DNA from: Candidatus Magasanikbacteria bacterium GW2011_GWC2_37_14
GTDB taxonomy: Bacteria; Patescibacteriota; Patescibacteriia; Magasanikbacterales; UBA922
Assembly (NCBI GenBank): GCA_000990355.1
Contig: LBSX01000001.1
Location: 3,392-67,391 of the forward strand
Direction: 5' to 3'
DNA length: 64,000 bases
Shown here: positions 301 through 45,900 of the stretch, in pieces
Layout: each line of letters opens with the position of its first letter
Position numbering within the stretch: position 1 is the stretch's first letter
Notes under the pieces: model-generated
The model's input: the letters and a program-made list of their open reading frames with translations, nothing else
What the model was told of the DNA's origin: nothing
The model's database searches: none
Made by a program: the position numbers and the translations under genes

Positions 301-651
301 TTATACAAATTCAATCCGGGCTACCTCGGCCGCATCATTTGGTCTGCGAGCCATTTTAATAATTCTGGTATAACCACCCCGGCGGTCTTTATAATTAGGT
401 GCAACTTCGTTGAATAAACGGTTTACAGCTTTTTCAGTATATAAAAATTTTAAAACGTTTCTGCGAGCTGCTAAATCATTTTTGATAGCTTTGGTAACCA
501 AAGGTTCTACCACAGTGCGCAAAGCCTTGGCTTTGGCCAAAGTAGTTTTGATTGATCCATGCAAAATAAGACTCTCTGCTAATGAACGCATTAAAGCCTT
601 ACGTACTTGACTAACTCTTCCTAAGGTAATTTTTTTCTTTTTATGCCGCAT
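301..651 (-). CDS. rplQ: 50S ribosomal protein L17
   Basis: 116 aa, MRHKKKKITLGRVSQVRKALMRSLAESLILHGSIKTTLAKAKALR. Typical L17 N-terminus and position after rpoA. Confidence 0.9.
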   Translation of the reverse strand: MRHKKKKITLGRVSQVRKALMRSLAESLILHGSIKTTLAKAKALRTVVEPLVTKAIKNDLAARRNVLKFLYTEKAVNRLFNEVAPNYKDRRGGYTRIIKMARRPNDAAEVARIEFV

Positions 652-669
652 ATTTAATATTTATTTCTC

Positions 670-1524: not shown

Positions 1525-1572
1525 ATAGAAAAGATAAATATTTAAATTAATTGCCTAAAAAGGCAAAAAAAA

Positions 1573-2196
1573 TTAACGAGTAGAATAATATTCAGTAATT
1601 AATTTAACATCAAAAACTTTTTCAAAATCAGTTTCGGCAGGTAAATTCAAAATTTTTCCTTGTTTTTTGGCAGCATCCAAAACTAACCAACTAGCCAATT
1701 CAACCTTACTCAAACGATCTTCCACGCCCTCAAAGATTTTCTTCTTAGTTTTGGTTTCGGCCAAAGTAACTTCGTCGCCGATTTTTAATAAGTGTGAAGG
1801 AATGTTGATTTTTTTGCCATTTACTTTAAACATGCCGTGATTTACAAATTGACGTGCCTGAGAACGAGTAACAGCAAAACCCAAACGATAAATAACATTG
1901 TCTAAGCGTAATTCTAATAATCGTTGTAAATTTAAACCAGAGTCACCCTTCATGGTTCTAGACAAGTCCACATAACGACGAAATTGTCTTTCACGTAAAC
2001 CATAAATAAGTTTGGCTTTTTGTTTTTCTAATAATTGTTTGCCATAACTAGAATTGGCACCTGGTCTTTTTTTAGGTCCATGTACACCTGGCATTTGGCT
2101 TAAACGACGAGCAACTTTGGTAGAATTGGTTTTTAAACCCAAATTCACCCCAAAACGGCGAGCAATTTTATTTTTTGGTCCAATATATTTAGGCAT
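1573..2196 (-). CDS. rpsD: 30S ribosomal protein S4
   Basis: 207 aa, MPKYIGPKNKIARRFGVNL...; S4 signature and operon position. Confidence 0.9.
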   Translation of the reverse strand: MPKYIGPKNKIARRFGVNLGLKTNSTKVARRLSQMPGVHGPKKRPGANSSYGKQLLEKQKAKLIYGLRERQFRRYVDLSRTMKGDSGLNLQRLLELRLDNVIYRLGFAVTRSQARQFVNHGMFKVNGKKINIPSHLLKIGDEVTLAETKTKKKIFEGVEDRLSKVELASWLVLDAAKKQGKILNLPAETDFEKVFDVKLITEYYSTR

Positions 2197-2199
2197 AGA

Positions 2200-2589
2200 T
2201 TATACACGACGTCTTTTTGGAGGACGGCAACCATTATGAGGAATAGGGGTAACGTCCTTTACGGACAAAACTTGAATTCCATTATTATTTAAAGCGCGAA
2301 TAGCTCCTTCGCGACCACCACCAATACCTTTTACAAAAACATGAACTTCTTTTATACCAGTAGGTGCAGTAGCATCGATAACCTTTTTTACTACCTGAGA
2401 AGCAGCATAAGGAGTAGCTTTTTTTGGTCCTTTAAAACCAACCATACCAGAAGAAGCCCAACCTAGTACATCGCCATTGGAATCAGTAATACTAACAATA
2501 GTATTGTTGAAAGTAGCCTGAATATAGGCTCGACCATGGCTTACTTGTTTTACAATCTTTTTCTTTTTTGAAACGGCAGCTTTTGCCAT
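2200..2589 (-). CDS. rpsK: 30S ribosomal protein S11
   Basis: 129 aa, ...[45 protein letters not shown]... Confidence 0.9.
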
Positions 2590-2616
2590 AAATCTACCAA
2601 CTTATAAAAAAATTAA

Positions 2617-3003
2617 TTAAGTTTTTTGAGCTGATGGTTTTTTACCAGAAGTGGCAAGATTACGTTTGTTGCCACGCACAGTACGACTGTTTGTTTTACT
2701 TCTTTGGCCACGCACTGGCAAATGTTTGGTGTGGCGTGAACCACGATAACTCTTGATATCTTTTAAACGTTTGATACTACTGGCAACTTCACGACGCAAG
2801 TCACCTTCGGTTTTGTATTGTTTTTCGACAATAGTTCGAATTTTGTCTTGTTCGGCATCGGTAAGATCTTTTACTCGAACAGTGTCTTTAATCTGGGCAG
2901 CAGACAAAATTTTCTTGGCAGAATTATCACCAATGCCATAAATATAAGTAAGAGCGATTAAAACTCTTTTTTCTTTTGGAATAGATACACCGGCTAAACG
3001 CAT
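2617..3003 (-). CDS. rpsM: 30S ribosomal protein S13
   Basis: 128 aa, [25 protein letters not shown]... Confidence 0.9.
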
Positions 3004-11083: not shown

Positions 11084-11415
11084 GTTTTATTTTTTCTGGC
11101 GAAAATAGCAAATGCTAAAAAATAATTTTCTAGCCAGCTACTAGAAGCTAAATAATGACCACTTTGAAGAAAATTATCACAAATAACTTCACGTAAACGT
11201 AGAAGTTCATTTCTTTTATTATTTTGCCAACGCGAATCAGTAATACTTAAATCCAACAATTCCAAAGTTCTCTCCAAGGCCAACAAAGCTTCGGAGTTTT
11301 TATTCTTTGTTTGCCAAGCAGTCACTCTACCAAACTCACTACCCACATTTCCTAATTGCTCGGCCAAACTTAAATTTTGCCAACGTTCGGCAGTGTTTTG
11401 ATGCCACATAATCAA
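11080..11415 (-). CDS. hypothetical small protein (possible all-alpha NTP-pyrophosphohydrolase-like; uncertain)
   Basis: 111 aa. The 4-nt overlap with the upstream 115-aa gene suggests a two-gene operon. Confidence 0.4.
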   Translation of the reverse strand: MIMWHQNTAERWQNLSLAEQLGNVGSEFGRVTAWQTKNKNSEALLALERTLELLDLSITDSRWQNNKRNELLRLREVICDNFLQSGHYLASSSWLENYFLAFAIFARKNKT

Positions 11416-11759
11416 ACGATTAAACTTTGGATGATTTCTTTAATACTATTTTGTATTTCTTTGCTTTCTATATTCATAGAGCGATTATTTTGTGCCGGAC
11501 GAATATTTATTAAAGAATGAAATTCAATAAAATTTTCTGGACTTTGCTCTGGATAAATATTAAAACCCCACAAATTTGCTTGTACCGAACCATTGGCCAA
11601 AAGAATTTCTTCGGCATCGGCGTGCATTTCTCCACCCAAGGCAATTATTTTCCGCTCAATATCTGCCACACCTTTAACCATATCTCCAAAAGTTTCGCTG
11701 GCTAATTTTTTTATTTCGGCTAAATTTATTTTTTTATTTACAATAATAATATTTTGCAT
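11412..11759 (-). CDS. hypothetical small protein
   Basis: 115 aa, translationally coupled to the downstream 111-aa ORF. Confidence 0.4.
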   Translation of the reverse strand: MQNIIIVNKKINLAEIKKLASETFGDMVKGVADIERKIIALGGEMHADAEEILLANGSVQANLWGFNIYPEQSPENFIEFHSLINIRPAQNNRSMNIESKEIQNSIKEIIQSLIV

Positions 11760-11783
11760 ATATTACAATAATACACTATCCAC

Positions 11784-11812
11784 TTGACAAAAGCAAGAAA
11801 ATGTGCTATAAT
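11784..11812 (+). promoter_or_regulatory. Consensus sigma70 promoter: TTGACA-17 bp-TGcTATAAT
   Basis: TTGACA at 11784-11789, exactly 17 bp spacer, extended -10 TGCTATAAT ending at 11812. It points into GC-rich island 1. Confidence 0.6.
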
Positions 11813-11918
11813 ATTACGTTATTGCTAGAGTGGCGAATTTGGCTTAGTTAAGCTATTTTCATCCCAAGCAATATAGAGTGAACCTTACAATTTAGTTGAG
11901 TTTACAGTGTCATCAAGC

Positions 11919-11981
11919 GTCATTCCCGCGAAGGCGGGAATCTATATTTCATTGTAAGATCTCCGCCTGCGCGGAGATGAC
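11919..11981. repeat. Bipartite palindromic element (GTCATTCCCGCGAAGGCGGGAATC ... GATCTCCGCCTGCGCGGAGATGAC)
   Basis: Same architecture and near-identical arms to the copy at 58217-58278. It lies in the 5' leader of the GC-rich gene. Confidence 0.7.
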
Positions 11982-12123
11982 GCCAAACAAACGCACCAAA
12001 GGGTGTCTAAATTCTTATCTTTGTACAGGTAAGAACCTAGATGCCCTTTGGTCGAGGGGGCTTCATTCGCTCGGAAATCCCGAGCACGAAAATTTCGACC
12101 ACGAACCACCATGGGAGAGACAG

Positions 12124-12867
12124 ATGACGAAGGGATACCAGTACCCCTACCGCACGAAATTGTGGGACCCGATGAGCGTGCGCCTGATCGAAGTGCCAAC
12201 CGACGCGGTCGGCTGCGTCATTCGCGGCCGCCACGCCGAGCCGGTGCGCGTGGGCCCGGACCACGCGCGCTCCCTGACGCCCGATGGCATCGCCATGGCC
12301 ATGACGGTTCAGATCCAGTACAGGGCGCTCATCGGCTTCCTGGGGAAGCACTTCGCCGAGCCGGCCTACTGGGCGTCGAACGCGGTGCGCTCAATCGTGA
12401 GCACGGCCCTGGCCACCGGGGCCGAGGTGGTGGAGCAGGACTCCCTGCTCAACTTGACGATCTCTATCGCCAAGGCGCCTGACCCCGAGGGCTGCCACGC
12501 CAACTTCCACGAGCACTGCGTGGCCAAGGGCATCAAGCTGGGCGAGATGTTCCGCTGGGTCACGGAAGATCCGGCGCGCTTCGGCGACCAGCCCGTGGAA
12601 GAGGCGCTCGCCAAGTGCAACGCCTTCAACACCAAGCTGATCGCGACCAGCGGCAACGAGGGACGATTCAAGGTCACTTTCGACCACGAACCGGCCAACT
12701 CGCTGTGGGCGAGGAGGAACGGCGTCTCGTTGGACGATCTAGGCCTGGACGTGCTCCAGGCCTACATCATCTTCCTGGGTGGACCGCACGGACACGTCCT
12801 CAGTGTCCAGAAGTTCTACCCGGACACCACCGCGACCCTGCCGGTCGTCTCCGCCACCTCGCGCTGA
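12124..12867 (+). CDS. hypothetical protein encoded by a ~64% GC island (possible horizontally acquired cargo)
   Basis: 247 aa from the ATG at 12124, with GGGAGAG RBS-like sequence 5 nt upstream; MTKGYQYPYRTKLWDPMSVRLIEVPTD.... An upstream 28-codon ORF (12041-12127) ends in a TGA that overlaps this ATG. The track ORF begins further upstream at a TTG, and an ATG at 11977 is an alternative start. Confidence 0.5.
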   Translation: MTKGYQYPYRTKLWDPMSVRLIEVPTDAVGCVIRGRHAEPVRVGPDHARSLTPDGIAMAMTVQIQYRALIGFLGKHFAEPAYWASNAVRSIVSTALATGAEVVEQDSLLNLTISIAKAPDPEGCHANFHEHCVAKGIKLGEMFRWVTEDPARFGDQPVEEALAKCNAFNTKLIATSGNEGRFKVTFDHEPANSLWARRNGVSLDDLGLDVLQAYIIFLGGPHGHVLSVQKFYPDTTATLPVVSATSR

Positions 12868-13030
12868 TTCCCACCGCCACCTCTCACCTCTCTCGCCCCC
12901 TGCCACGTCGTCGTCAGACTTTACGTGGTCTCACGGGCACAACTCAACATCAAGGTTCGCTCTCAACCCCCGTGGTTCACACCCGGGGGAAGAGACTAAT
13001 TCAATCATTTATAAATGATTGAATTACTTC

Positions 13031-13069
13031 ACACAAAATCCACCAAAAAGGTGGATTTTGTGTTTTTGT
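13031..13069 (+). terminator. Rho-independent terminator (14-bp perfect stem plus T-tract)
   Basis: acacaaaatccacc-aaaaa-ggtggattttgtgt followed by tttt. Confidence 0.7.
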
Positions 13070-13074
13070 CTGAC

Positions 13075-13560
13075 CCCTCCTTACGAAGGAGGGGTGACTT
13101 CGACCTTCGCAGGTCGGAGACGGGGTGGTTAGAGTTTGTTAAGATATTTACAGGTGTTATAAATATCCTCAATAGTTTCATGTAGATATCTAAATACCTG
13201 TTCTGAAGTATATCTGTTTATGGTGAGTCCAAGTGATTTTAAATAATTTTCTTTTTTAATATCTTTTTCTTGCACTAGTTCATCTTCATGAGTACTACCA
13301 TCCACTTCTATAGCTAGTTTTAGTTGTTGACAATAGAAATCTACGACTACATTGCCAACCCCACATTGACGACGAAATTTATAACCTAATTGTCTATTTG
13401 ATAAGTGTTTCCACAAAACTGTTTCACTCTTGGTTGGCTGATTCCTTAAAATCTTTCTTAGTTTGGTTTTTGTTTTTTGATTGAAAATTTTTGTCATACT
13501 TAACCACCTCCCCCCGACTGCGACGTCGGGGTACTCCTCCTTCGTAAGGAGGAGTCAATG
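13075..13560. mobile_element. Candidate miniature mobile element: ~60-bp imperfect terminal inverted repeats flanking a DUF559 endonuclease gene
   Basis: Left arm, 13075-13135: cccctccttacgaaggaggggtgacttcgaccttcgcaggtcggagacggggtggtta. The reverse complement of the right arm, 13500-13560, is tgactcctccttacgaaggaggagtaccccgacgtcgcagtcggggggaggtggtta. Confidence 0.45.
13129..13497 (-). CDS. DUF559-family endonuclease-domain protein (Vsr/restriction-endonuclease-like fold)
   Basis: 122 aa with ETVLWKHLSNRQLGYKFRRQCGVGNVVVDFYCQQLKLAIEVDGSTHE, the characteristic DUF559 motif set. Confidence 0.7.
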   Translation of the reverse strand: MTKIFNQKTKTKLRKILRNQPTKSETVLWKHLSNRQLGYKFRRQCGVGNVVVDFYCQQLKLAIEVDGSTHEDELVQEKDIKKENYLKSLGLTINRYTSEQVFRYLHETIEDIYNTCKYLNKL

Positions 13561-13575
13561 AACAAATACGTAATT

Positions 13576-14165
13576 TTATTTAAATAAAATTTCTCTTTTC
13601 AACTCCCCCAACTCCTTGTACAACACTGTTTTCACACCCAACTTTTTTGCCTCGGCCATATTTATTAATTGATCATCAACCATCATTACTTCATTTGCTT
13701 TTACTTTATAACGATTAAAAAGATAAAGCATGGTAACCTTGCTCGCTTTAGGTAATTTTAATTCCCAAGTATTAATAATATTTTTGCCAAAAATTTTTTT
13801 TAATTCCGGAAAAATATTATTAATGTCTTTAAATTGTGGTCGGGTATTTTTGGATAATAGCAAAGTCTTAATCCCCCGCCTGCCATGCCGGCTTAAGGCA
13901 AAATTTGTTTATTCAAACCAAAAGTTGAATAATGAATTTGTTTTAATTCTTTGCCAGTAATTGATATGTTTAAAGCTTTGACCGCTTTTTCCCAAGCAGA
14001 CTTTTGACTTATCTTTCTTTCAGCAGCTTCATTAAAAAATCCATATATAATTTTATAAGCATGTTTCTCATTAATTTTAAATCTCTTGGCTACTTTTTTT
14101 GCAGTAAACGGATAACCACCAGTAATTACTACTCCGTAAGCATCAAAAATAATTAATTTGATCAT
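13576..14165 (-). pseudogene. HAD-superfamily hydrolase split into two ORFs (13893-14165 N-half, 13576-13863 C-half)
   Basis: The N-half has motif I (IIFDAYGV). The C-half has motif III/IV (MMVDDQLINMAEAKKLG). The halves are separated by a stop plus frameshift within a 29-nt GC-rich segment (cccccgcctgccatgccggc). The C-half starts at a TTG in the track. Confidence 0.4.
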
Positions 14166-14170
14166 AATTT

Positions 14171-14283
14171 GTCATCCTGAATTTACCTGCCTATCGGCAG
14201 ACAGGTTTCAGGATCTTTCATAAAATAATATTTATTTAGTAAGTTAGATTAAGGGATAGATGCTGAAACAAGTTCAGCATGAC
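14171..14283. repeat. Bipartite palindromic element, GTCATCCTGAA..TTCAGGATC / GATGCTGAA..TTCAGCATGAC type
   Basis: Near-identical copy at 17367-17479, diverged copies at 23457-23548 and 25056-25147. The 3' hairpin overlaps the stop and last codons (..KLSC*) of the adjacent paralog. Confidence 0.8.
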
Positions 14284-15842
14284 AGCTTTCTCACTATCCC
14301 ATGGCTTGCATCTACTTCTACCAAATCACCATCTTTTAAGACTTGAGTGGCCATTTTGGTGCCGACCACGCAAGGAATATAAAGCTCACGAGAAACAATA
14401 GCCGCATGGCAAATAATACCGCCTAAATCAGTAACAATGGCCACAGCTTTTTTTATAGCTGGCATAATATCTGGACTAGTGGCATAAGAAACCAAAACAT
14501 TCCCCTTCTCCATTTTGTTAATTTCTTTTGGTGAATTAATAATTTTTACAATACCACGCACTTTGCCCACGCTAGCACAATCACCCACAAGTTGATTTAC
14601 TTTTTCGGTCTTTTGCTTAATAAATTTTATTTGTTTAACAAAATCTTTGGCTTTTTTGCCTTCGTAAGTCACCCTAGTTTTAGTAGTGCTAAATTGAACT
14701 GCAAAAATTCTTTCATTTAAAATATGCTCATTTGGGCCTTTATTTTTTAACAAATTTTTTAATTCCCAAGAATATAATCTATTTATTTGGCTCATAGACA
14801 ACTGTTGTCGTCTAGCCACTTCTCGTAATAATTTTTGCAACACATAACAACTGTAATATTGAACATCTTTGCGATAAGATTTTGAATAAACAAAACGCTG
14901 GGCCAATTTAAACAATTCTTGAAATTCACTGCGAATTTCCAGATCTTTAATATAATTCTTTTGCGCTCGAATAATTTCTTGTTTTTTATTGGCAATTTTC
15001 TTTAATTCTTCTTCGGGATTTGTTTTTTGTTGCAATAAGCGAATAAGGGAATCTACAAAATAATCAATCCCCCACTCTGGCCCCATATACATAAAAGGCA
15101 ACCAACAATATTTTTCATAATGATTTTTTAAAGCTAACCAAGATTTTTTATCTACCAATTGCCAAGTACTTATTACTTTTTGTAAATCATTGCGAAGCAA
15201 AAAATTTACCAATTTTTTATTTTGTTTGATCTTTTGTAAAAGTTTTAACAAATCAATAGTTTCTTTTTGCGCAAAAGTTTCGGTTGTAGGAGTAGTGAGA
15301 ATACTAAAAACATCACCCACTGAGATTTTTAATTTATTTGCTTGAATTTTTTGCTTAAGATAATTATTTAAATGATTGGAAAATAAGTTTTTTTCAAAAT
15401 CTACTAATACTATTGGCCAACCAGCACACCAAGTATTGTGCAATCCCTTAAACCATTCTGCCCCGAGTTTGGCCAAATCCTTATCAGAAGTATTTTTTAA
15501 ATTTATTTTTTCCAATTTTTGTGAAAAAACAAAAAACTTGTGAGCATTGTTTAATGTTAATTCATCCGTCTTTATTCCCCATTCAGGATTACTAATAATT
15601 TTATTAAAAATCTCATTTGTACAAACACGTAAATCTTCCAAACGATAATAATACAAAAAATCGTCATTTTCAAAAATATCCAGAGTGTCACCCGGATTAG
15701 TTTTTAAATGATGAATACTCTTAAAATATTTATTCACCAAAATAGAATCAGCCAAACAAAAATGAAAAAATGGCGCCCGTGGTATGCGCTCTAAAAGAAA
15801 AAAACTAGGTGATTTTTTTGACATAAAATTAATTAGCTTCAC
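14274..15842 (-). CDS. PEP-utilising-enzyme mobile (phosphohistidine) domain protein, array paralog 1
   Basis: 522 aa. C-terminus GDCASVGKVRGIVKII...GNVLVSYATSPDIMPAIKKAVAIVTDLGGIICHAAIVSRELYIPCVVGT is the PEP-utiliser swivel His domain. N-terminal shared motifs: FSILTTP, KYCWLPFMYMGPEW, SKSYRKD. Confidence 0.75.
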   Translation of the reverse strand: MKLINFMSKKSPSFFLLERIPRAPFFHFCLADSILVNKYFKSIHHLKTNPGDTLDIFENDDFLYYYRLEDLRVCTNEIFNKIISNPEWGIKTDELTLNNAHKFFVFSQKLEKINLKNTSDKDLAKLGAEWFKGLHNTWCAGWPIVLVDFEKNLFSNHLNNYLKQKIQANKLKISVGDVFSILTTPTTETFAQKETIDLLKLLQKIKQNKKLVNFLLRNDLQKVISTWQLVDKKSWLALKNHYEKYCWLPFMYMGPEWGIDYFVDSLIRLLQQKTNPEEELKKIANKKQEIIRAQKNYIKDLEIRSEFQELFKLAQRFVYSKSYRKDVQYYSCYVLQKLLREVARRQQLSMSQINRLYSWELKNLLKNKGPNEHILNERIFAVQFSTTKTRVTYEGKKAKDFVKQIKFIKQKTEKVNQLVGDCASVGKVRGIVKIINSPKEINKMEKGNVLVSYATSPDIMPAIKKAVAIVTDLGGIICHAAIVSRELYIPCVVGTKMATQVLKDGDLVEVDASHGIVRKLSC

Positions 15843-17358
15843 TAATAATATTAACTAGACCCTTGTTTGCATCTACTTCTACTTCGTCTCCATCCTTTAA
15901 TATTTGCGTACCTATTTTGGTACCTATAACGCACGGGATATTTAACTCACGCGAAACAATAGCAGCGTGGCAAGTAATACCACCAACATCTGTAATAATT
16001 GCTTTGGAAATTTTCATTAGTGGCATCATGTTAGGATTGGTGGCATAGCTTACCAAAATATCATGAGCATAAAATTTTCCATAATCCTTTTGGTCTAACA
16101 CAACTTTTACCACACCTCTAACCTTGCCAGGACAAGCACATTCACCAATTAGTACTTTTAAATTTTTATCTATAACCAACTTTTCTAAATTATCCCTATA
16201 CTTTTGTGCTTCATCACCAGCAAATAATTTTACTTTTAAATTTTCACAAGCATAAACGGATAACTTTATTCTCTTATTAACCAAATTATAATCAACTTCT
16301 TTTTTGTTTAATAAGATTTCACTTAATTCTTCTATTGATAAGTAATGAGCTTGGTGAGCACTAAGATAATTTCTTTTACCTATTTCTGTAAGTAACAAAT
16401 GATAAGAATAGTTTCCGCAATATTCAACATCTTTTCTGATCGCTTTTGAAAATCCCAATTCCCTTATTAACCAAACAAGATGCATCTCATATTTATTTAA
16501 AAGCAATTCCTTTTCCCAAAATTTCTGAATTTTGCTAAAATCTTTTTGATTTTTTCTAATATCTACTTCTAAATCAAAAGGATCCTTACGAACTAGTTCT
16601 ATTGTTGATTGTATTATATCTTCTAAAGATAATAATGGCCCTTCAAAACCAAAACTTAACCATTTATATTTATCCCAATGCTTAAACAAGATTTCTTTTA
16701 ATCCAATGTAATTGTCTAAATCACGACTAATTTGGGAAAAATCATTTTTAAAAAATTCATCCCATTTTTTGTTCTTAACAATTTTTTTAGCAATTAATAA
16801 TAATTCATCACGTTCTTTTACTAAATAAGTTTTTTTATTATTAGTGGATAAAATTTGAAACAACTCCTCTGTACCTATTCCTAATTTTAGCTCATTTACT
16901 TTAGATTTTAACAACAGTTTTACTTTTTTGGATAAAAGTTGATGTTCATATTCAACAAACGAAATTAATACGCCCCAAGAAGCTAATTTTAAAAATAAAT
17001 CTCTAAAATCAATAATTAAATTATTTAAATTACCATCTGTTTGTTTATTTAAATCCAAATTAATTACTTTTTTAGAAAAATCATAAAATCTATCAAGAAA
17101 AATAGTTGTATTTTGTAAAACTTTCTGTGAATATACTTTATCTTCCAAATGACTCAAAATATACTTACCCGCTTTATGGTAATCTTGCCAATGTATACCT
17201 TGTGTCAATTCACCATTATTCCTTAGCTCTACGAAATGATCAACTGCCGCTGTGCGACCGCAGGTTTTAGCAAAAAATGCGCCTGTAGCTTGAATATGGT
17301 AGGCATATGGAAACAAATTGGCGTTATATTGTTGATTAAGTATTTTCCATTTACGCAT
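15829..17358 (-). CDS. PEP-utilising-enzyme His-domain protein, array paralog 2
   Basis: 509 aa; ...GECACPGKVRGVVKVV...GGITCHAAIVSRELNIPCVIGT. Overlaps paralog 1 by 14 nt. Confidence 0.75.
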   Translation of the reverse strand: MRKWKILNQQYNANLFPYAYHIQATGAFFAKTCGRTAAVDHFVELRNNGELTQGIHWQDYHKAGKYILSHLEDKVYSQKVLQNTTIFLDRFYDFSKKVINLDLNKQTDGNLNNLIIDFRDLFLKLASWGVLISFVEYEHQLLSKKVKLLLKSKVNELKLGIGTEELFQILSTNNKKTYLVKERDELLLIAKKIVKNKKWDEFFKNDFSQISRDLDNYIGLKEILFKHWDKYKWLSFGFEGPLLSLEDIIQSTIELVRKDPFDLEVDIRKNQKDFSKIQKFWEKELLLNKYEMHLVWLIRELGFSKAIRKDVEYCGNYSYHLLLTEIGKRNYLSAHQAHYLSIEELSEILLNKKEVDYNLVNKRIKLSVYACENLKVKLFAGDEAQKYRDNLEKLVIDKNLKVLIGECACPGKVRGVVKVVLDQKDYGKFYAHDILVSYATNPNMMPLMKISKAIITDVGGITCHAAIVSRELNIPCVIGTKIGTQILKDGDEVEVDANKGLVNIISEAN

Positions 17359-17366
17359 ATTATTTT

Positions 17367-17479
17367 GTCATCCTGAATTTACCTGCCTATCGGCAGACAG
17401 GTTTCAGGATCTTTCTTAAAATAATATTTATTTAGTAAGTTAGATTAAGGGATAGATGCTGAAACAAGTTCAGCATGAC
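17367..17479. repeat. Bipartite palindromic element (copy of 14171-14283)
   Basis: ~120 bp near-identical to 14165-14290, including the AT-rich spacer. Confidence 0.8.
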
Positions 17480-18960
17480 AGCTTTATTACATCTCCATTA
17501 TTACCATCAACTTTTACTAAATCATTATCTTTAAAAATCTTAGTCGCAACTTTTGAACCGACCACACAGGGTTTTTTCATCTCGCGTGCCACAATCGCTG
17601 CATGACAAGTAATGCCACCAATATCAGTGACAAAAGCACTGGCTTTTTTCATGGCTGGTAAAAAATCAGGTGAAGTTTGAACAGCTATTAAAATATCTCC
17701 CTCTGCTACTTTATCAATATCCTTGGCTGTTAAAACCACCTTGGCCTTGCCAGTTGCTTCACCAATATAGGCAACCATACCATGAACCGAAGTAGTATTA
17801 ATATTAAATTCCTCTTGGGCTACGTTTTCTGCCAAATATTTTTCAGCGGCTTTTCCCGTTAAATAAAAAAACTTTTTACCTGGTTCCTCTATACAAACAC
17901 AATGTTGTTTTCTTCCGGCAACTGGTAAATCCTGTATATCCAACTTACCAGCCAAAATATCCAAAAGTTCATACAAACTACAGCGATGTAAATTTACTTT
18001 GGAAATTTCTAATAGTTCTGCCGCCCTATCTAGTAATAAATCTAGGGCAAAAAACATCTTAAACTCGGTTTCAGTGCGGTATTGTTTGTTATACATCATA
18101 TCTCGCGCACCTTTAAACAAATTTTGCTCTACCTCACTCAACTGCAATTTTTCAACTAATTCCTCTTGTTTGACAGCAAATAACTCAAGTTCTTTTTCCG
18201 CCTCTGCCAAACGACTTTCAATATTGCCCATAGTCAAAATCTCTTTTACCTCTTCTACATAAAATTTTTCATCATGTGAGGGGCCAACATAGCCAAAATC
18301 AAACCAAATATATTTTTCTTTTAATTTTTTTATCCGAGGATCATTTACTGCCAAATCACTCTTACCTTGACGTGAGACAATTAAAGCCAATTCAAATAAA
18401 TCTAATTTTAAATCTCGGGCAAAAATATTTTTTATGGGAGTAATTAAAATACTAAAAGCCTCGTTGATATTTATATTTAACTTTAAATCCTCTACTTTTT
18501 TCTTAATAATATCTTTTAGTAAAGTGGAAAGTTTGTAATGACGCAAATCCGAAACTACGGCCACAAAACCCACTCCACACAAATCTTTGCCAGCCTGATA
18601 AAGTTTGCCAATATATTTGGCTAATTTAGCTTTGTTAAATTTTGTCAGATCTTCTTTCATTATTTTATCCGACAATTTAATCACTTTTTTACCTAAGCTT
18701 ATTTCCTCTTTTAAAACTTGAGTACTGTAATTTTTGTCATTTTTTAATTTTTCAATAATAATTTCTCCCATGGCCGTAAAATTTTCCAAATCTCCATACC
18801 AATTAGTACTAGTGTCTTCATGGTGTTCCAAAAAAGAATAGTCAAATTTTAAGGGGGCAGTATGAGGGAAACTGTATTTTTCATGAAAACCCCATTGATT
18901 AAGGCTTAGGGTCAATGGCGTAACTCCTTGTTCTTGATGTAAAATTTTAGATTTTTTCAT
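17470..18960 (-). CDS. PEP-utilising-enzyme His-domain protein, array paralog 3
   Basis: 496 aa; ...GEATGKAKVVLTAKDIDKVAEGDILIAVQTSPDFLPAMKKASAFVTDIGGITCHAAIVAREMKKPCVVGS. Confidence 0.75.
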   Translation of the reverse strand: MKKSKILHQEQGVTPLTLSLNQWGFHEKYSFPHTAPLKFDYSFLEHHEDTSTNWYGDLENFTAMGEIIIEKLKNDKNYSTQVLKEEISLGKKVIKLSDKIMKEDLTKFNKAKLAKYIGKLYQAGKDLCGVGFVAVVSDLRHYKLSTLLKDIIKKKVEDLKLNININEAFSILITPIKNIFARDLKLDLFELALIVSRQGKSDLAVNDPRIKKLKEKYIWFDFGYVGPSHDEKFYVEEVKEILTMGNIESRLAEAEKELELFAVKQEELVEKLQLSEVEQNLFKGARDMMYNKQYRTETEFKMFFALDLLLDRAAELLEISKVNLHRCSLYELLDILAGKLDIQDLPVAGRKQHCVCIEEPGKKFFYLTGKAAEKYLAENVAQEEFNINTTSVHGMVAYIGEATGKAKVVLTAKDIDKVAEGDILIAVQTSPDFLPAMKKASAFVTDIGGITCHAAIVAREMKKPCVVGSKVATKIFKDNDLVKVDGNNGDVIKLSC

Positions 18961-20432
18961 ATTTTTCTCACCACTCCCTTGTCGGCATCCACCTCTACCT
19001 CATCACCATCATGCAAAACATCGGTAGCAACTTTGGTGCCAATTATACAAGGAACTTTTAGTTCACGAGCCACTATTGCCGCATGACAAGTAATGCCACC
19101 CAAATCAGTAATAATCGCCGCAGCCTTTTTCATGGCTGGCACAATACTCGGGTTAGTCATATGCGAAACCAAAATATTACCTTCATGCATTTTTGCCATT
19201 TCCTGAATTTTATTAATAATTTTTACTCTGCCAGTTACTTTACCTTTAAAAGCAGGCTGACCGGTAAGTTCTTGACTATTTTTTTGAATATTTTTTTCTT
19301 CAAAAAATTTCATTTTTGCTCGTATTTTTTTGGCTTCTTCTCCAGAATAATAAACCGTTTGTCCACGATCGGCAATATGCAAACTATATTTCATTCGCTG
19401 GCTGGCCAATTGTGACAAATCTTCACCCTTGATTAACACTCTTTCAAAATCTGTATGTGCCAAAAATCTAACCTGCTCCATGGTTAAATAAGTACGTTTG
19501 GCAACTTCTTTAAATATTTTATCCATTGAATAATATCCAAAAAACTGGGCGTCTTTACTTAAAAGACGGGTATAAAAAGAATCTTGGACAATTTTAAAAA
19601 TCTTTTGGTGTGTGGGATGAATATTATAAGTAGCAAAAATTTCTTTTTGCTGTCTTAAGGTTTCTTGCATCTCTTTTTTTAGATTTTCCAAAAACTTTTT
19701 AGCGCCTTTGTCTTTCAACTTATTCAACTCTTCATTAAAATATGCTTTATCCAAAAATTTTCCTTGTAAACCATATTCCAACCATTCGTATTTTTTTGTA
19801 TGCTTACTCAAAGCAGTTTCTTGTTTACTATTTTCAAGCAAAACAATTTTGGCTAATTCTTCTTTTTCTTTGGTCCAGATACTTTTTTCTTTTGGCACAC
19901 AAAGAATTTGAAAAGCATCATTGGGTTCAAGCTTCACTTCATTTTTAACATCTTGATATTTTTCTTGTAAATAATCTTGTAAATATTTGCTAAGCAAATT
20001 ATAGGGTGTTTCCAAAAACCACATTGGTCCGCGCGGGTCATGCACCAAAATTTGCTTTTGTTCAAACTTATTTATCCAGGTTAACAAATCTTTATTAGTA
20101 GCTTTTTTAAGATTAAGTGTTTGTAGATGCTTACCAAAAACAAACATTTCTTTGGCATACTTTTCGGTTACTTTATGTAGCCCATCCCAACGTTTGGGAT
20201 TGGTAAACATCCAAGAAAAAACCTCTTTATTGGTAGCATCAAAATGTTCTTTGGTAACAAAAAGATTACAACTAGAATTAATATATTCTGCGCCTAAATA
20301 ACGGCCGGGAATAAAACCCCAACGTTTTGGTAAATTGGTGGTAAAACCTTCCCAAGTAGCAGTTACAAAAAGATAATTTGCATAATCTTCTTTTTCTATT
20401 AATTGCCATTCTTTGTTGTATGGTATTTGCAT
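18957..20432 (-). CDS. PEP-utilising-enzyme His-domain protein, array paralog 4
   Basis: 491 aa; ...GQPAFKGKVTGRVKII...GGITCHAAIVARELKVPCIIGT. Confidence 0.75.
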   Translation of the reverse strand: MQIPYNKEWQLIEKEDYANYLFVTATWEGFTTNLPKRWGFIPGRYLGAEYINSSCNLFVTKEHFDATNKEVFSWMFTNPKRWDGLHKVTEKYAKEMFVFGKHLQTLNLKKATNKDLLTWINKFEQKQILVHDPRGPMWFLETPYNLLSKYLQDYLQEKYQDVKNEVKLEPNDAFQILCVPKEKSIWTKEKEELAKIVLLENSKQETALSKHTKKYEWLEYGLQGKFLDKAYFNEELNKLKDKGAKKFLENLKKEMQETLRQQKEIFATYNIHPTHQKIFKIVQDSFYTRLLSKDAQFFGYYSMDKIFKEVAKRTYLTMEQVRFLAHTDFERVLIKGEDLSQLASQRMKYSLHIADRGQTVYYSGEEAKKIRAKMKFFEEKNIQKNSQELTGQPAFKGKVTGRVKIINKIQEMAKMHEGNILVSHMTNPSIVPAMKKAAAIITDLGGITCHAAIVARELKVPCIIGTKVATDVLHDGDEVEVDADKGVVRKI

Positions 20433-20437
20433 AATAA

Positions 20438-20558
20438 TCTCGAGCCACAGCGAGAGATCCCTTTTCTATGAGATTAACTCGCTATATTAAATTAGTTGTT
20501 TAGTTAAATCGAAAGGGATTCCTCACCCCGCATTTGCGGGGTTCGGAATTATGGTGAC
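20438..20558. repeat. ~115-bp palindromic element; an inverted copy is at 58596-58703
   Basis: The reverse complement of 58596-58703 aligns almost base for base (atctcgagccacagcgagagatccc...gggattcctcacc...ttcggaat). Its end supplies the last codons (PNPANAG*) of paralog 5. Confidence 0.8.
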
Positions 20559-22013
20559 AACCCCCTTACTCGCATCCACCTCTACTATATCACCATCCTT
20601 CAACACTTTAGTAGCAATTTTAGTGCCGATCACACAAGGAATGTTTAGTTCTCTTGCTATTATCGCAGCATGACAAGTGAGCCCACCTTCATCTGTAATT
20701 ACAGCTTTGGCTTTTTTCATAGCTGGCAAAAATTCTGGTTGTGTCATACAAGCCACTAAAATGTCTCCTTCCTGCATTTTTACCAATTCACTTTCTCCTC
20801 TACATACTTTCACAGTACCAGTGACTTTACCCACAGAAGCACAATTACCTTTAATTTCAGTAACATCTTCAATTTCTTTATTTTTATTTAATTTAGACCA
20901 GAATAATTCTGCGTCCTTGCCTACAAACACCTTTGGCTCTTCCTGCGGAAGAAAAACATATAGACTACTCTTTCGACGTTTTTCCAACTCTGGCACAATC
21001 TCAGGTAACTGTTCCAATTCTGCTGGAAGAATATAGTGTAAGTAACTTAAAGGAATTTTAAATTTACTAGCTATTTCTTTTAAAATTAATTCTAAATAAA
21101 TGATTGACTGGGTCATGTATTCCTTACGGCGATCGTGAATAATAAATAAGGTGTCCGCGATCTCCAGAAGGTCTAATAATTCCTGATTTTCAATTTTTTT
21201 CATCAATTTTTTCTTCTCTGCCAATTTTTTTGGTAAACTCTCAAAATCATTGATAAATTTTTCAAAATCTACACCTTTATTGAACGTCTCCTTTAGCTCG
21301 GATACAAAATCTTTACTATCCAAAAATTTAGATGAAGTATAACTATTTAATTTCCAATAATACTTTTTTTGATGATGAAGAATCTTTTTAGCAATTTTTC
21401 TATTCGACAAAATTCCATCCATATCCACATCTTGCAAACCTTTCTTTTTTATCTCACGTGCAATCAAACATAAATTGTAATGTTCCCTCGATACGAACGA
21501 ATGAATAACGGGGGTAGTTAATAATAGTAGATCATTTTGACCACTAAACAATTCCTTAACCAACGTTCTTATTTTTTCCTCTGTAGTTAAAGTAAAACCC
21601 TCCACAATATGTGAAACACTAAGAAGATATGCATATAATTCATTTGCTTTTCCCCAAGCAGTATAAAGTTCTTCTAGTGACGCTGTGGACCATTCCTTTT
21701 TACCTAAAATCTTAAACTGCTTTAATGTTTTTTTACAAATTTTTTCATCAGATTTTAGTAAATAAAATAAAAAATTCTTACTACTTTTAAAACGTTCTTG
21801 TAACTCATTATTAATCCTATGTAAATCATCCCAACCATACAAAAAATAACACACATCATTTGAAAAATACTCTATACAAACAGAATAGCCAAAATTTAAA
21901 AATTTTGGCATATCTCTAACCATTGACCAAGCCGGGCCATGAAGTAGAGCAGGCACACCATTGAATCCCTGAAAATACCAACTTTTTTCAGTTAAATAAT
22001 TAATTTCTTTCAT
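20523..22013 (-). CDS. PEP-utilising-enzyme His-domain protein, array paralog 5
   Basis: 496 aa; ...GNCASVGKVTGTVKV...GGLTCHAAIIARELNIPCVIGT. The C-terminal tail is encoded by the repeat element. Confidence 0.75.
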   Translation of the reverse strand: MKEINYLTEKSWYFQGFNGVPALLHGPAWSMVRDMPKFLNFGYSVCIEYFSNDVCYFLYGWDDLHRINNELQERFKSSKNFLFYLLKSDEKICKKTLKQFKILGKKEWSTASLEELYTAWGKANELYAYLLSVSHIVEGFTLTTEEKIRTLVKELFSGQNDLLLLTTPVIHSFVSREHYNLCLIAREIKKKGLQDVDMDGILSNRKIAKKILHHQKKYYWKLNSYTSSKFLDSKDFVSELKETFNKGVDFEKFINDFESLPKKLAEKKKLMKKIENQELLDLLEIADTLFIIHDRRKEYMTQSIIYLELILKEIASKFKIPLSYLHYILPAELEQLPEIVPELEKRRKSSLYVFLPQEEPKVFVGKDAELFWSKLNKNKEIEDVTEIKGNCASVGKVTGTVKVCRGESELVKMQEGDILVACMTQPEFLPAMKKAKAVITDEGGLTCHAAIIARELNIPCVIGTKIATKVLKDGDIVEVDASKGVVTIIPNPANAG

Positions 22014-22024
22014 AAATAAATTTG

Positions 22025-23461
22025 TTAAATAACCCTTTTTATTATACCATTAAATGCATCCACCTCAACCACATCGCCATCATGTAAAAACTTAGTAGCA
22101 AATTCTGTACCAACCACACAAGGTATTTGTAACTCTCGCGCTACAATGGCTGCATGGCATAACATTCCCCCTTGATTAGTTACGATTGCTTTAGCTTTGC
22201 GAATCGCTGGTAAATAATCTGGATCAGTCATAGGACAAACTAAAATTTCTCCTTCTTCCATTTTATCAACTTCATCCATAGAATGTAAAATATTTACCAC
22301 TCCAGTTTCTTTTCCCTGCCAAATTGGTGTGCCTTGTAAAAATTCTATGGCCGGGACTTCCTTCTCAACAACTTGTAACAAGCTCTCGGCTTCCGAGCCA
22401 GAACAATGTAATACCTCTCGTTTGGAGCCCAAGACACAATAACTTTTGATTCTTCGATTCAATTCATCTACATCGGGTGATTGTCCATTCATTAACAACT
22501 TTTTTAACTCGCCAATGGTTAACATAAAGAGCTGATTATAAGACAAACCGTGTTCAGCGGCAATTTTTTTAAAAAAATTACGCTGGTGGGCACCGGCTAT
22601 AGAAATTACATCCCAATTTTCCTCTTTCAAGTCAGCTAAATCGCGCACAATATCCAAAAATTTCCAAGCTTCGGGGTATTTAATTTTTAAATCTTCTAAG
22701 ATTGTTTCTGCTTCTTGATGCTGTAACTCTTTTTTCTGAATTAATAATTTCAATTTTTCTTCTGGCTTTTCTTTACTCAACTTTTCTATTTCCTGGCGGT
22801 AATATTCTGCATTAAATGGCTCCGTCCACCAACATAGAGAATTAGTCCAGCCATAATCCGTCGCATGTTTTTTAAAATCTTCTGCAACATCCCCACCAGC
22901 TTTTAATTTTATGGCAATGTTTAATAAATTAATTTCTCCTAAAATTATTGGGAAGTCTTTTTTAGGCAAGGCCGCCTTGGCTACTAGCTCCGCTTGGCTT
23001 ATTTCTCTTCCAGCTAAATTAAATTTTTGTGGCAAATCCAAAAAAATTTCTTGCAAAGCTCCATCAGCTAACATAATACCAAGCCAATAACGGGTATGAT
23101 TAAAACTGGTAAGTAAATAATCTTCAATCTTCTCCCAAACCAAACTCGTTAATTGTATTCCTAAAAGTTTATCTCTGGAAGCATAAATTAATTTTTGATA
23201 ATCTTTTCTAAACTGCACAGAATCATTTTTTAAAATTTCTTTTACCTCCTGCACTCCCTCTCGATAATCTTCTTCCAAAATAAATTGACCATGACCTAAA
23301 ACTAAATAATATTTTGGTACATATGGCACAGTAATTTTAAAATCTCCATCAACAGCGTTGCGCGACATTCCATCTTCAAACATGCCAGTATGTTTCCATC
23401 GGCCAAACAAATGCCATTTATTATTTTTGATTATTTCTGTTTGATTCATATTATCTGTCAT
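22025..23461 (-). CDS. PEP-utilising-enzyme His-domain protein, array paralog 6
   Basis: 478 aa; ...GTPIWQGKETGVVNIL...GGMLCHAAIVARELQIPCVVGT. Confidence 0.75.
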   Translation of the reverse strand: MTDNMNQTEIIKNNKWHLFGRWKHTGMFEDGMSRNAVDGDFKITVPYVPKYYLVLGHGQFILEEDYREGVQEVKEILKNDSVQFRKDYQKLIYASRDKLLGIQLTSLVWEKIEDYLLTSFNHTRYWLGIMLADGALQEIFLDLPQKFNLAGREISQAELVAKAALPKKDFPIILGEINLLNIAIKLKAGGDVAEDFKKHATDYGWTNSLCWWTEPFNAEYYRQEIEKLSKEKPEEKLKLLIQKKELQHQEAETILEDLKIKYPEAWKFLDIVRDLADLKEENWDVISIAGAHQRNFFKKIAAEHGLSYNQLFMLTIGELKKLLMNGQSPDVDELNRRIKSYCVLGSKREVLHCSGSEAESLLQVVEKEVPAIEFLQGTPIWQGKETGVVNILHSMDEVDKMEEGEILVCPMTDPDYLPAIRKAKAIVTNQGGMLCHAAIVARELQIPCVVGTEFATKFLHDGDVVEVDAFNGIIKRVI

Positions 23462-23548
23462 CCTGAATTTATTTCAGGATCTTTTTTAAGTATTTTTTAT
23501 TTAATAAATCTAGATAACGAAAAGATGCTGAAACGAGTTCAGCATGAC
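23457..23548. repeat. Bipartite palindromic element (GTCATCCTGAA..TTCAGGATC / GATGCTGAAACGAGTTCAGCATGAC)
   Basis: Same two-hairpin architecture as 14171-14283. Confidence 0.7.
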
Positions 23549-25047: not shown

Positions 25048-25055
25048 AAACGTTT

Positions 25056-25147
25056 GTCATCCTGAACTTGTTTCAGGATCTTTAATAAAATAATATTTAT
25101 CTAGAAAATAATCTAACGAAAAGATGCTGAAATAAATTCAGCATGAC
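25056..25147. repeat. Bipartite palindromic element (GTCATCCTGAACTTGTTTCAGGATC / GATGCTGAAATAAATTCAGCATGAC)
   Basis: Same family as 14171-14283. Confidence 0.7.
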
Positions 25148-44324: not shown

Positions 44325-44385
44325 ATTCCTTAAGTTTAATAATTAAGATATTTATTATAGCATCTAACTGTGTAGATTACAAAAA

Positions 44386-45331: not shown

Positions 45332-45354
45332 AATATTATAATAATATTTAATTA

Positions 45355-45888: not shown

Positions 45889-45900
45889 AAAAATTAATTA

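Follow-up and report, generated by a model that had tools for sequence, protein, structure and literature searches.

A putative SixA-like histidine phosphatase gene in Candidatus Magasanikbacteria GW2011_GWC2_37_14, a syntenic gene whose high G+C content appears to be maintained

The stretch of DNA analysed here (the window; 64 kb in all), from an AT-rich bacterium of groundwater, has a G+C content of 35.2%, and within it the 500-nt bins that cover positions 12001-13000 are 63% GC. As the original prediction, made from the sequence alone, had stated, this island contains an ORF of 247 codons plus a stop (12124-12867, + strand; GC 0.66), which encodes a putative SixA-like member of the histidine phosphatase superfamily. 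Upstream lies a divergent DUF5674 gene (11412-11759, - strand) and downstream an array of 11 tandem paralogs of 360-522 amino acids (14274-30561, - strand), whose domain matches include a C-terminal PEP-utilizers phosphohistidine swivel domain; these are rifampin-phosphotransferase (RPH)-like proteins that lack the ATP-grasp domain, and the first of them converges on the GC-rich gene. We note that a mobile-type DUF559 endonuclease gene lies nearby. In the public gene calls two out-of-frame ORFs stand in place of the true 12124-12867 ORF, and because of these mis-called ORFs exact look-ups of the 247-aa product and of three alternative starts gave no match in public records.

The unit begins with a sigma-70-type promoter with an extended -10 region (TTGACA-17-TATAAT, with TGcTATAAT; 11784-11812, + strand) that matches the consensus at 12 of 12 positions and carries TG at -15/-14, and transcription is predicted to start near 11819. 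This extended pattern is present at two sites in the window, with none expected (100 shuffles), and the twin that had been noticed at 48940 is real and is the only other such site. The promoter motif (CTTGACAAAA...TGTGCTATA) is also found upstream of orthologs in five other lineages (L001, L009, L007, L014 and L012); since it is conserved in this way, it is plausible that the gene would be highly expressed, as had been proposed.

The 5' leader of about 305 nt (~11819-12123, + strand) is strongly structured (fold z = -7.5) and does contain the palindromic element ascribed to it. Its likeness to the ortholog leaders is confined to the first ~15 nt (TTATTGCTAGAG), the remainder being lineage-specific, and in the leader alignment TATTGCTA is common to the window, L001 and L014. 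The element is a REP-like composite palindrome (11917-11983, + strand; inverted repeat of 27 nt with 81% complementarity) that has been inserted into the leader and is not present in the ortholog leaders; its halves recur at 58217-58276 and 40212-40233. As the ortholog leaders range from ~60 to 310 nt and the structure here is mostly the inserted palindrome, the view of the long leader as a designed regulatory element is not supported. Inverted-repeat and folding analysis also found a 26-bp imperfect hairpin (11995-12052, + strand) that encloses the ATG of a 28-codon uORF (12041-12127, + strand), whose TGA overlaps the main ATG as ATGA. The uORF exists mechanically, with the predicted overlap, but nothing supports it as a gene: its GC3 is 0.67 (0.90 in the main ORF), it has no clear Shine-Dalgarno sequence and no coding periodicity, and in the ortholog leaders, which differ in length and sequence, no uORF shares its position or sequence. 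Translational coupling, the other part of that claim, was therefore not borne out. A Shine-Dalgarno-like GGGAGAG, read from the sequence at 12113-12119 (+ strand), lies 4-6 nt 5' of the main ATG. Repeat comparison further identified, at 12093-12107 (+ strand), a 15-nt stretch (TTTCGACCACGAACC) that exactly repeats, in direct orientation, the FDHEP-coding positions 12678-12692 of the ORF and may be the scar of a partial duplication.

Downstream of the stop codon the proximal 3' UTR (12868-12995, + strand) is 61% GC and folds into two GC hairpins (12903-12928 and 12967-12989), and the orthologs likewise have a GC-rich hairpin directly 3' of the stop codon. It is followed by a perfect 30-bp AT-rich palindrome (TAATTCAATCATTTA/TAAATGATTGAATTA; 12997-13026, + strand) that is unique in the window, and by the predicted intrinsic terminator (13031-13069, + strand), for which inverted-repeat and sequence analysis gave a perfect 14-bp stem (13031-13063), a 5-nt loop and a T-run. 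The GC-richness covers the coding sequence and continues for 50-100 nt into the 3' UTR; the 5' leaders do not share it. With its own consensus promoter and its own terminator the unit is self-contained and monocistronic, in agreement with the original prediction. A GC-rich gene at 53.5 kb has a different AT-rich palindrome at the same relative position, conserved in L016. The idea of an integron cassette with an attC-like border site was dropped, since the AT-rich palindromes that follow the first and fourth GC-rich islands of the window differ from one another and from those of the orthologs.

The ORF has GC1/2/3 values of 0.61/0.46/0.90 and a strong three-base periodicity. The 55 long ORFs of the window have a median GC3 of 0.26, and the ordinary ones among them reach 0.35 at most, the only outliers being the 12124-12867 ORF, a region at 44.4 kb and a gene at 53.6-54.2 kb; 35% of the codons of the ORF are codons used less than 10% elsewhere (CTG, for example, 55% versus 2%), so the codon-usage comparison proposed as a check marks it as a clear outlier. 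The ribosomal-protein and rpoA genes of the window have GC3 values of only 0.18-0.30, which, with the rarity of the ORF's codons elsewhere, indicates that its usage is not the translationally preferred usage of this genome.

Such an island could have arisen as an assembly chimera, in which a fragment of a high-GC organism was joined into a CPR contig, and two further public assemblies are interrupted at ~12238, inside the island, by a run of 10 Ns or by the end of a contig. However, two independent assemblies from other sequencing runs (L020 and L022) are 100% identical to the window over 11300-13600 and cross both junctions, and the same architecture recurs at orthologous loci in six or more further lineages, whose samples are unrelated; we regard a chimera as excluded for practical purposes.

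The AF2 model of the protein is confident, and a fold search with it led to histidine phosphatases with their known active-site arrangement. Like dPGM and SixA, the protein has an alpha/beta fold built on a central sheet. R36-H37 align with R7-H8 of SixA and with the RH of 3f2i, 4hbz and PGAM5; across 39 sequences R36 is invariant and most have H37, and the third residue of this motif is A or S (RHA/RHS), not the G of RHG. R89 aligns with SixA R55, and H188-E189, within a (G/D)HEP motif, match GHEP in 3f2i through a second, weak segment of the HMM alignment, E189 being nearly invariant and H188 invariant among close family members, so that by alignment the second Arg and second His of the phosphate pocket are both in place. 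The window protein gave no Pfam match at E ≤ 1 and none with NCBIfam or PADLOC; one of the 39 family members touched PF00300 (E = 0.14), and the family profile gave E values of 0.05-0.2 against the PDB. In the absence of a significant sequence-model match, superfamily membership rests on the fold and the motifs. A resemblance to SPFH/band-7 domains that had been suggested was not upheld: there was no Pfam match, and the fold-search hits included no SPFH structure and pointed instead to the histidine phosphatases. On this modelling the product is a divergent histidine phosphatase that had not been annotated before, with SixA as its nearest structural relative in the superfamily.

Word-indexed homolog searches gave one and then four matches, and an exhaustive representative search was needed to find the family, which has ~67 cluster representatives with protein identities of 25-43%; across it amino-acid composition is a poor proxy for GC content. 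E. coli SixA (PDB 1ujc), of branch 1, aligns with the window protein at the N-terminal Arg-His dyad, at R..LT..G, at S..R..T and at the later His (GHEP/DHEP). The two differ in length: SixA has 161 residues and the window protein ~247, about 90 more, with a helical insertion at residues ~100-180, and so it is not a minimal ~160-aa SixA-type core. They also differ in motif (RHG in SixA, RHA/RHS in the window family) and in the company they keep (ArcB or PTS-Ntr for SixA, RPH-like proteins for the window family), the extreme composition of the window gene sets it further apart, and the likeness between them lies below the level that Pfam and NCBIfam detect. Other branch-1 phosphatases (dPGM/BPGM, PhoE, RosC, PGAM5 and CobC) have the same fold and phosphate-pocket residues, and several are similar in length (200-250 aa), with identities to the window protein of 11-17%.

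These protein-level results bear on another reading, in which the GC-rich block would give a structured non-coding RNA, and its reading frame would be a by-product of the paucity of stop codons in GC-rich sequence. The strong promoter and terminator are of the kind expected for a stable RNA, the leader and 3' region are highly structured, and antisense and out-of-frame ORFs are abundant. Nevertheless, the three-base periodicity is clear (GC3 0.90 versus GC2 0.46), members of the protein family are still 25-43% identical with their synonymous sites randomised, the fold is confidently modelled with a known active-site arrangement, and Rfam searches (the whole window at the gathering threshold, and 11700-13200 and 44300-49500 at a permissive E-value) found nothing credible. 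Protein-level conservation refutes the RNA reading, to which we attach scarcely any probability, and the ORF is almost certainly a real protein-coding gene with a histidine-phosphatase fold.

Orthologs of the gene, 35-43% identical, are found in the corresponding place in six or more other CPR lineages, where they keep the orientation opposite to their neighbours, a TTGACA/TGnTATAAT-type promoter and the convergence on RPH-like swivel-domain proteins. Orthologs or family members lie between a divergent DUF5674 or PPDK_N gene and a convergent PEP-utilizers gene in L001-L006, L007/L018, L012/L013, L014 and L015, and convergence on genes for the phosphohistidine swivel domain was found in seven of eight lineages. 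In the window, as at every ortholog locus, the gene stands by itself on the + strand amid a run of - strand genes. The DUF5674 neighbour is the same in L001-L006, and where this flanking protein is 48% identical the product of the GC-rich gene is 41-43% identical. A profile search of a genome collection with a three-sequence alignment found one locus, L007 (labelled Gammaproteobacteria, yet clearly CPR-like by content), a metagenome scan with that alignment returned the L007 and L001 lineages and no others, and a search of viral contigs with it found no related locus.

These comparisons weigh against the recent acquisition of the gene from a high-GC donor, as foreign DNA that has not yet drifted to host composition, although the 30-point GC excess with its sharp borders, the alien codon usage, the GC-type amino-acid composition and the DUF559 gene and REP-like repeats nearby would all suit such an origin. 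Against it stand the syntenic orthologs with the same promoter and orientation, a divergence comparable to that of the flanking gene, saturated synonymous sites with high GC4 in every GC-rich lineage (see below), the lack of a close homolog in named high-GC organisms, phages or viral contigs, and the lack of any tRNA in the window, of an adjacent integrase-like ORF and of direct repeats at the borders. Acquired genomic islands resemble this unit in being sharp compositional outliers with their own promoter and terminator and atypical codon usage, but this unit is syntenic and equally atypical in relatives, is saturated without drift and has no integration hallmarks. Recent horizontal acquisition is thus largely refuted and we consider it very improbable; the horizontally acquired cargo gene of the original prediction gives way to a gene that is likely resident and syntenic. 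That prediction would have yielded to homologs that are ordinary host genes of similar GC; they are indeed resident and syntenic in related CPR, but they are GC-rich there too.

Composition was compared in eight lineages, the window included, most of them on short contigs. Six of the eight are strongly GC-rich at this gene, with GC3 values of 0.72-0.93 against 0.22-0.56 in the neighbours: 0.90 versus 0.26 in the window, 0.88 versus about 0.5 in L001, 0.85 versus 0.56 in L008, 0.82 versus 0.47 in L009, 0.72 versus 0.22-0.31 in L014, and 0.93 in L015, where the locus GC is 0.47. In L007 the gene has a GC3 of 0.40 versus 0.16-0.28, and L012, a distant family member, shows no GC excess (0.54 versus 0.39-0.60), so that GC-richness belongs to a subclade and not to the whole family. 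At conserved residues 61-63% of four-fold sites differ between the window and L001, L008, L009 or L015, where saturation predicts 0.60-0.62, and these differences include 19-22 C<->G changes, yet GC4 is still 0.84-0.92. Saturation at such a GC4 indicates that the composition has been maintained in place and is no leftover of a recent transfer; there is no sign of amelioration, that is, of decay toward the host composition seen in the neighbours (GC3 0.22-0.56). The extreme GC of the coding sequence and proximal 3' UTR thus appears, from these sequence comparisons, to be a long-maintained, gene-specific property common to the orthologs.

A high GC4 in each genome might also arise by recurrent replacement at the same locus from an unsampled high-GC reservoir (for example a high-GC CPR with the same module), each genome's allele then being fresh. 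The GC-rich state does recur across genomes of very different background GC (31-49%), the promoter and leader start are shared and so could travel with the gene, the 15-nt FDHEP-segment duplicate could be a recombination scar, and T4SS genes adjoin the module in the window and in L012. But in each of the eight sampled lineages the flanking genes lack the GC-richness, and so no reservoir can be seen; with an amino-acid identity of 28-48%, the flanks have diverged too far for homologous replacement between these lineages; and the 53.6 kb gene of the window and its flanks have the same ~80% nucleotide identity to L016, which indicates co-divergence rather than replacement. Recurrent replacement is therefore unlikely, if less so than a single recent transfer.

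That gene at 53.6 kb, a stand-alone IMP cyclohydrolase, is the second candidate in the window for a G+C content held above that of the genome, and small units at 44.5 kb and at 49 kb are perhaps two more; the 53.6 kb gene is on public record from one source only. Faster evolution of the 53.6 kb gene than of its flanks (by hypermutation or cassette swapping) is ruled out by their equal identity to L016, and its four-fold divergence of 39% fits slow decay and maintenance alike.

Two kinds of force might hold the GC content up. One is GC-biased gene conversion, or some other bias of repair at a hot spot of recombination: if stalled forks there provoked frequent recombinational repair, GC would rise with no selection on the product or the RNA. 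A link between recombination and GC3 is documented in bacteria (PMC4450053) and counts in its favour. So does the arrangement of the gene, which at every locus lies against its neighbours; it would be strongly transcribed, and probably head-on to replication, the direction of replication being taken from gene orientation and skew only. Three of the four GC-rich islands of the window are antiparallel to their neighbours, and the untranslated 3' sequence is GC-rich too. The gene-conversion effects reported in bacteria are, however, said to be far below the 60-point GC3 excess found here, and the excess is asymmetric (AT-rich 5' leaders, GC-rich 3' UTRs), where a tract-based process predicts otherwise. 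We hold biased conversion to be rather unlikely, though somewhat less so than recurrent replacement.

Selection on the transcript or the DNA, rather than biased conversion, seems to us the likeliest cause, but it is still doubtful and the least certain step of the explanation. It could favour, for example, a long-lived transcript that is rich in GC, strongly folded and resistant to nucleases, or alternatively DNA that escapes AT-binding proteins. The coding sequences of all five GC-rich genes compared fold more stably than codon-shuffled versions (z from -1.4 to -3.9), but the test lacks specificity, since an ordinary gene used as a control reached z = -4.6 and the GC-rich genes do not differ significantly from the five controls. 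The transcript would start at the consensus promoter, which CPR lineages have retained together with the gene, run against all neighbours and end at the strong terminator after several 3' hairpins. Taken as a whole, the locus of Candidatus Magasanikbacteria GW2011_GWC2_37_14 is probably best explained as a resident, vertically inherited, monocistronic SixA-like gene whose GC content has long been maintained.

Several features of the neighbourhood bear on what the protein might do. The swivel-domain His is invariant in the neighbouring RPH-like proteins. In RPH (PDB 5hv1) and in three-domain enzymes of the PEP synthase/PPDK type the ATP-grasp domain is fused to the rest, whereas here it is not; no PPDK_N gene is present within the 64-kb window, and in relatives a separate PPDK_N (ATP-grasp) gene adjoins the module. 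To our knowledge no described RPH system has a dedicated histidine-phosphatase partner, and we know of no phosphatase of the dPGM/BPGM, PhoE, RosC, PGAM5 and CobC set that is linked to PEP-utilizers arrays. Many branch-1 histidine phosphatases act on small phospho-esters, and by analogy these form an alternative substrate class for the window protein. SixA dephosphorylates the phosphohistidine of NPr, which lies downstream of a PEP-utilizers enzyme, and also the catalytic one of Ndk (PMC6282199, PMC7948535, PMC12934123). Its known substrates are phosphohistidines in PEP-dependent phosphotransfer chains and in a catalytic intermediate, and the neighbours of the window gene carry the PEP-utilizers phosphohistidine domain. 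The RPH-like swivel-domain proteins would be charged by the separately encoded ATP-grasp (PPDK_N) subunit, and the phosphatase would hydrolyse the phosphohistidine, or a phosphorylated product, in this adjoining system. The functional link is drawn from gene neighbourhood only, and action on the neighbouring phosphohistidine system is a candidate role at slightly worse than even chances.

A literature search on GC-rich genes in CPR/Patescibacteria or Magasanikbacteria and on DUF5674 found nothing relevant. The present locus brings into the histidine phosphatase superfamily an unannotated family of ~67 clusters that neither Pfam nor NCBIfam models, and its conserved gene order ties that family to a large uncharacterised CPR expansion of split rifampin-phosphotransferase-like enzymes, which gives a testable hypothesis for both. 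It is also a clean counter-example to the equation of a compositional island with horizontal transfer, as orthologs in genomes of 30-49% GC keep GC3 values near 0.7-0.9. If a gene-specific force holds the GC content, the gene is a natural experiment on selection versus biased conversion favouring G+C in bacteria; this force could act by selection, on the DNA or on its transcript, or through biased conversion in genes that are strongly transcribed and antiparallel to their neighbours. We tentatively suggest, as a proposition not far short of an even bet, that AT-rich CPR genomes include a limited set of vertically inherited genes in which G+C is kept, actively and over long times, 25-30 points higher than in the genome as a whole. 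Gene callers trained on composition may hide similar genes in other AT-rich genomes, and if the suggestion is true, such genes mimic horizontal transfer and gene finders systematically mis-call them.

The GC-rich gene at 11.8–13.1 kb forms a self-contained plus-strand transcription unit with a strong promoter, as the original prediction had it, and each of its parts lies where that prediction placed it. The promoter (TTGACA-17-TATAAT with an extended -10, 11784–11812) matches at 12 of 12 positions, and its predicted twin at 48940 is the only other such site in the 64 kb; shuffled sequence contains none. Downstream are a leader of about 305 nt that folds more stably than its shuffles (z = -7.5), an ORF of 247 codons (12124–12867; 66% GC, with G+C of 0.61, 0.46 and 0.90 at the three codon positions), and a 3' region of four successive hairpins (z = -8.7), the last of which is a terminator with a perfect 14-bp stem (13031–13063). 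Two assemblies made independently from separate sequencing runs (L020 and L022) are 100% identical to 11300–13600 and span both junctions, which disposes of the earlier concern that the island might be an assembly chimera. Two further public assemblies, of the same organism, are interrupted at ~12238, by a contig end (L023) and by a 10-N scaffold gap (L021), and this point adjoins a GC palindrome at 12246–12268; the island is hard to assemble, yet it is contiguous and not an artefact. Public calls at the site (ENA, Logan) consist of two out-of-frame plus-strand ORFs of 122–144 and 135 aa (regions 12048–12482 and 12615–13022), and neither the 247-aa product nor three alternative-start versions of it has an exact match in a 15-billion-protein collection that contains the neighbouring proteins of the same contig; the gene is new and mis-annotated.

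The 247-aa protein has no match in Pfam, NCBIfam or PADLOC. An exhaustive HMMER search with this protein and its one close homolog as queries yielded about 67 cluster representatives, 190–280 aa in length, which form a family with the recurring motifs RH(S/A), R-x-LT-x-x-G, S-x-x-x-R-(A/S)-x-x-T and (G/D)HEP. A confident AlphaFold2 model built from 39 family sequences (pLDDT 90.5, pTM 0.88) retrieved from the PDB by Foldseek, at probability 1.0, only structures of the histidine phosphatase superfamily. In profile alignment R36-H37 corresponds to the Arg-His dyad R7-H8 of SixA, R49 to R21 and R89 to R55, and the GHEP motif aligns with the second catalytic histidine of a SixA-like structure. These matches show the SPFH/band-7 likeness suggested earlier to be wrong: the product is a SixA-like member of the histidine phosphatases, divergent, some 90 residues longer than SixA itself and too distant for present sequence models to recognise.

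Several ENA contigs (L001–L006) carry the homolog nearest to the window protein (41% identity), and its position there matches that of the window gene. There it is the sole plus-strand gene, divergent from DUF5674 genes (48% identity between the window neighbour and these contigs) and a PPDK_N (ATP-grasp) gene, and convergent with PEP-utilizers-domain genes. This arrangement is also kept in L007/L018, L012/L013, L014 and L015; the family member of L012/L013, a Komeilibacteria MAG, is only 22% identical. The L007/L018 genome (28–30% GC) is labelled gammaproteobacterial; L007 (CAZTIC010000004.1) is titled "uncultured Gammaproteobacteria bacterium", while its low GC, its PPDK_N/PEP-utilizers array and its family member look CPR-like, and this MAG contig was probably mis-binned or mislabelled.

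The composition of the gene is far from that of its host. The window, part of a groundwater CPR/Parcubacteria genome, is 35.2% GC, and its 55 long ORFs have a median GC3 of 0.26, with ordinary genes at 0.35 or less and the ribosomal-protein and rpoA genes (301–3003) at 0.18–0.30. The gene has a GC/GC3 of 0.66/0.90 beside neighbours with a GC3 of 0.26; 35% of its codons are ones whose share of the synonymous family is below 10% in the rest of the window, and CTG accounts for 55% of its leucine codons versus 2% elsewhere. Related loci give gene GC/GC3 values of 0.64/0.88 (L001; neighbour GC3 0.43–0.56), 0.64/0.85 (L008; 0.56), 0.62/0.82 (L009; 0.47), 0.58/0.72 (L014; 0.22–0.31), 0.69/0.93 (L015; locus GC 0.47) and 0.44/0.40 (L007; 0.16–0.28), and at L012 (0.51/0.54; 0.39–0.60) there is no excess. 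All these loci have a TTGACA/TG-n-TATAAT-type promoter, and the promoter motif CTTGACAAAA...TGTGCTATA and leader start TATTGCTA are recognisably common to them. At conserved residues, 61–63% of four-fold sites differ between the window gene and those of L001, L008, L009 and L015, equal to the 0.60–0.62 expected of fully randomised sites of that composition; C-G interchanges make up 19–22 of ~50 such sites, yet each copy is still 84–92% G+C there. Saturated neutral sites under the AT-biased equilibrium of the neighbours could not remain GC-rich, so the composition was held in each lineage. The proposal of recently acquired cargo fails on these sites and on the synteny of the orthologs. The alternative is that each lineage was re-supplied independently, at the same locus, from an unseen GC-rich reservoir. 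We favour long maintenance in place; such lasting GC-richness is genuinely odd.

The leader is indeed structured, mainly through a REP-like composite palindrome (11917–11983) and a 26-bp hairpin (11995–12052), but control by the translationally coupled uORF proposed within it is not supported: the uORF has no conservation in ortholog leaders, no SD and no coding periodicity. Ortholog leaders are ~60–310 nt long and have in common only their first ~15 nt. REP-like GC-rich palindromes (CATTCCCGCGAAGGCGGGAATC and relatives) are scattered across the window, and halves of the leader copy recur at 58217–58276 and 40212–40233. An exact 15-nt direct repeat, TTTCGACCACGAACC, is present in the leader (12093–12107) and in the catalytic motif of the ORF (12678–12692); the leader copy is in the main ORF frame, likewise codes for FDHEP, and may be the scar of a partial duplication. 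Directly downstream of the unit is a gene for a 122-aa DUF559/very-short-patch-repair-like endonuclease (13129–13558, minus strand), whose flanks (13066–13120 region) carry GC-rich CCCCTCCTT..AAGGAGGGG hairpin repeats; similar repeats occur at 48820–48845 and 49270–49370.

Three other GC-rich units are present in the window. The island at 53470–54190 encodes a 195-aa stand-alone IMP cyclohydrolase (PurH N-terminal MGS domain; 53564–54151, minus strand; GC3 0.85), antiparallel to both neighbours and followed 3' by an AT-rich palindrome (53450–53485) and a bidirectional terminator. Its ortholog in L016 (L017 is also listed for this island) is 75% identical in amino acids, syntenic and equally GC-rich, and retains the palindrome. 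Gene and flanks alike are ~80% identical in nucleotides, and this pair alone would be compatible with either slow decay or maintenance. Two short units of 53–54% GC, at 44370–44880 (minus) and 48940–49290 (plus, with the twin promoter), have in common a ~105-nt 3' module of ~90% identity that has a long-loop terminator, AAAAACCGCC...GGCGGTTTTTT, at its end. They have no match in Rfam, Pfam or NCBIfam; their candidate ORFs (80 and 45 aa) show weak coding periodicity, and they could be either small proteins or sRNAs. Separately, an ORF at 56329–56703 (plus) matches the 23S rRNA-intervening-sequence protein/bAvd-like family, members of which are often accessory proteins of diversity-generating retroelements.

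Translational optimisation is an unlikely cause of the GC excess, as ribosomal-protein genes prefer the opposite codons and the proximal 3' UTR is GC-rich too. The excess spans the coding sequence and the first 50–100 nt past the stop codon, a stretch with a GC hairpin in every ortholog, and excludes the 5' leaders. A bias in repair or conversion, acting on a gene that is strongly transcribed and probably head-on, is a further candidate: a general link between recombination and GC is documented for bacteria (PMC4450053), and in each locus the gene runs antiparallel to those around it, an orientation seen in three of the window's four GC-rich units. Tract-based conversion accounts less well than transcript selection for the 5'/3' asymmetry. 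In all five GC-rich genes tested the coding sequence forms a more stable fold than its codon shuffles do (z -1.4 to -3.9), a result that is only suggestive because one of five ordinary controls is also much more stable (z = -4.6); that control is an ordinary-GC ORF of 263 aa at 55530–56321 (plus) with no Pfam match. We tentatively favour selection at the nucleic acid level. Gene orientation switches near 50676, from almost all minus (301–50675) to mostly plus (50678–62987), and GC skew changes sign at ~51–53 kb; a replication origin, or else a terminus, may lie here, and in the former case islands 1, 3 and 4 would be head-on genes.

Beyond the phosphatase gene lie eleven tandem paralogs resembling rifampin phosphotransferase (RPH-like; 14274–30561, minus) with a helical substrate domain and a phospho-His swivel and without ATP-grasp, followed by a T4SS coupling protein gene (TraG/TrwB-like; 30638–32356, minus); in L012 this module adjoins genes for PrgI, TraC, TraG and a T4SS pilin. 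The 64-kb window contains no PPDK_N gene. Known targets of SixA, from which it strips the phosphate, are phosphohistidines that act downstream of a PEP-utilizers enzyme and the catalytic phospho-His intermediate of Ndk (PMC6282199, PMC7948535, PMC12934123). The conserved pairing and the fold suggest a role on the neighbouring phospho-His system, in which the phosphatase would reset or regulate the phospho-His state of that system, or dephosphorylate its products. The gene encodes a SixA-like histidine phosphatase linked by gene order to an RPH-like phosphotransfer array specific to CPR.
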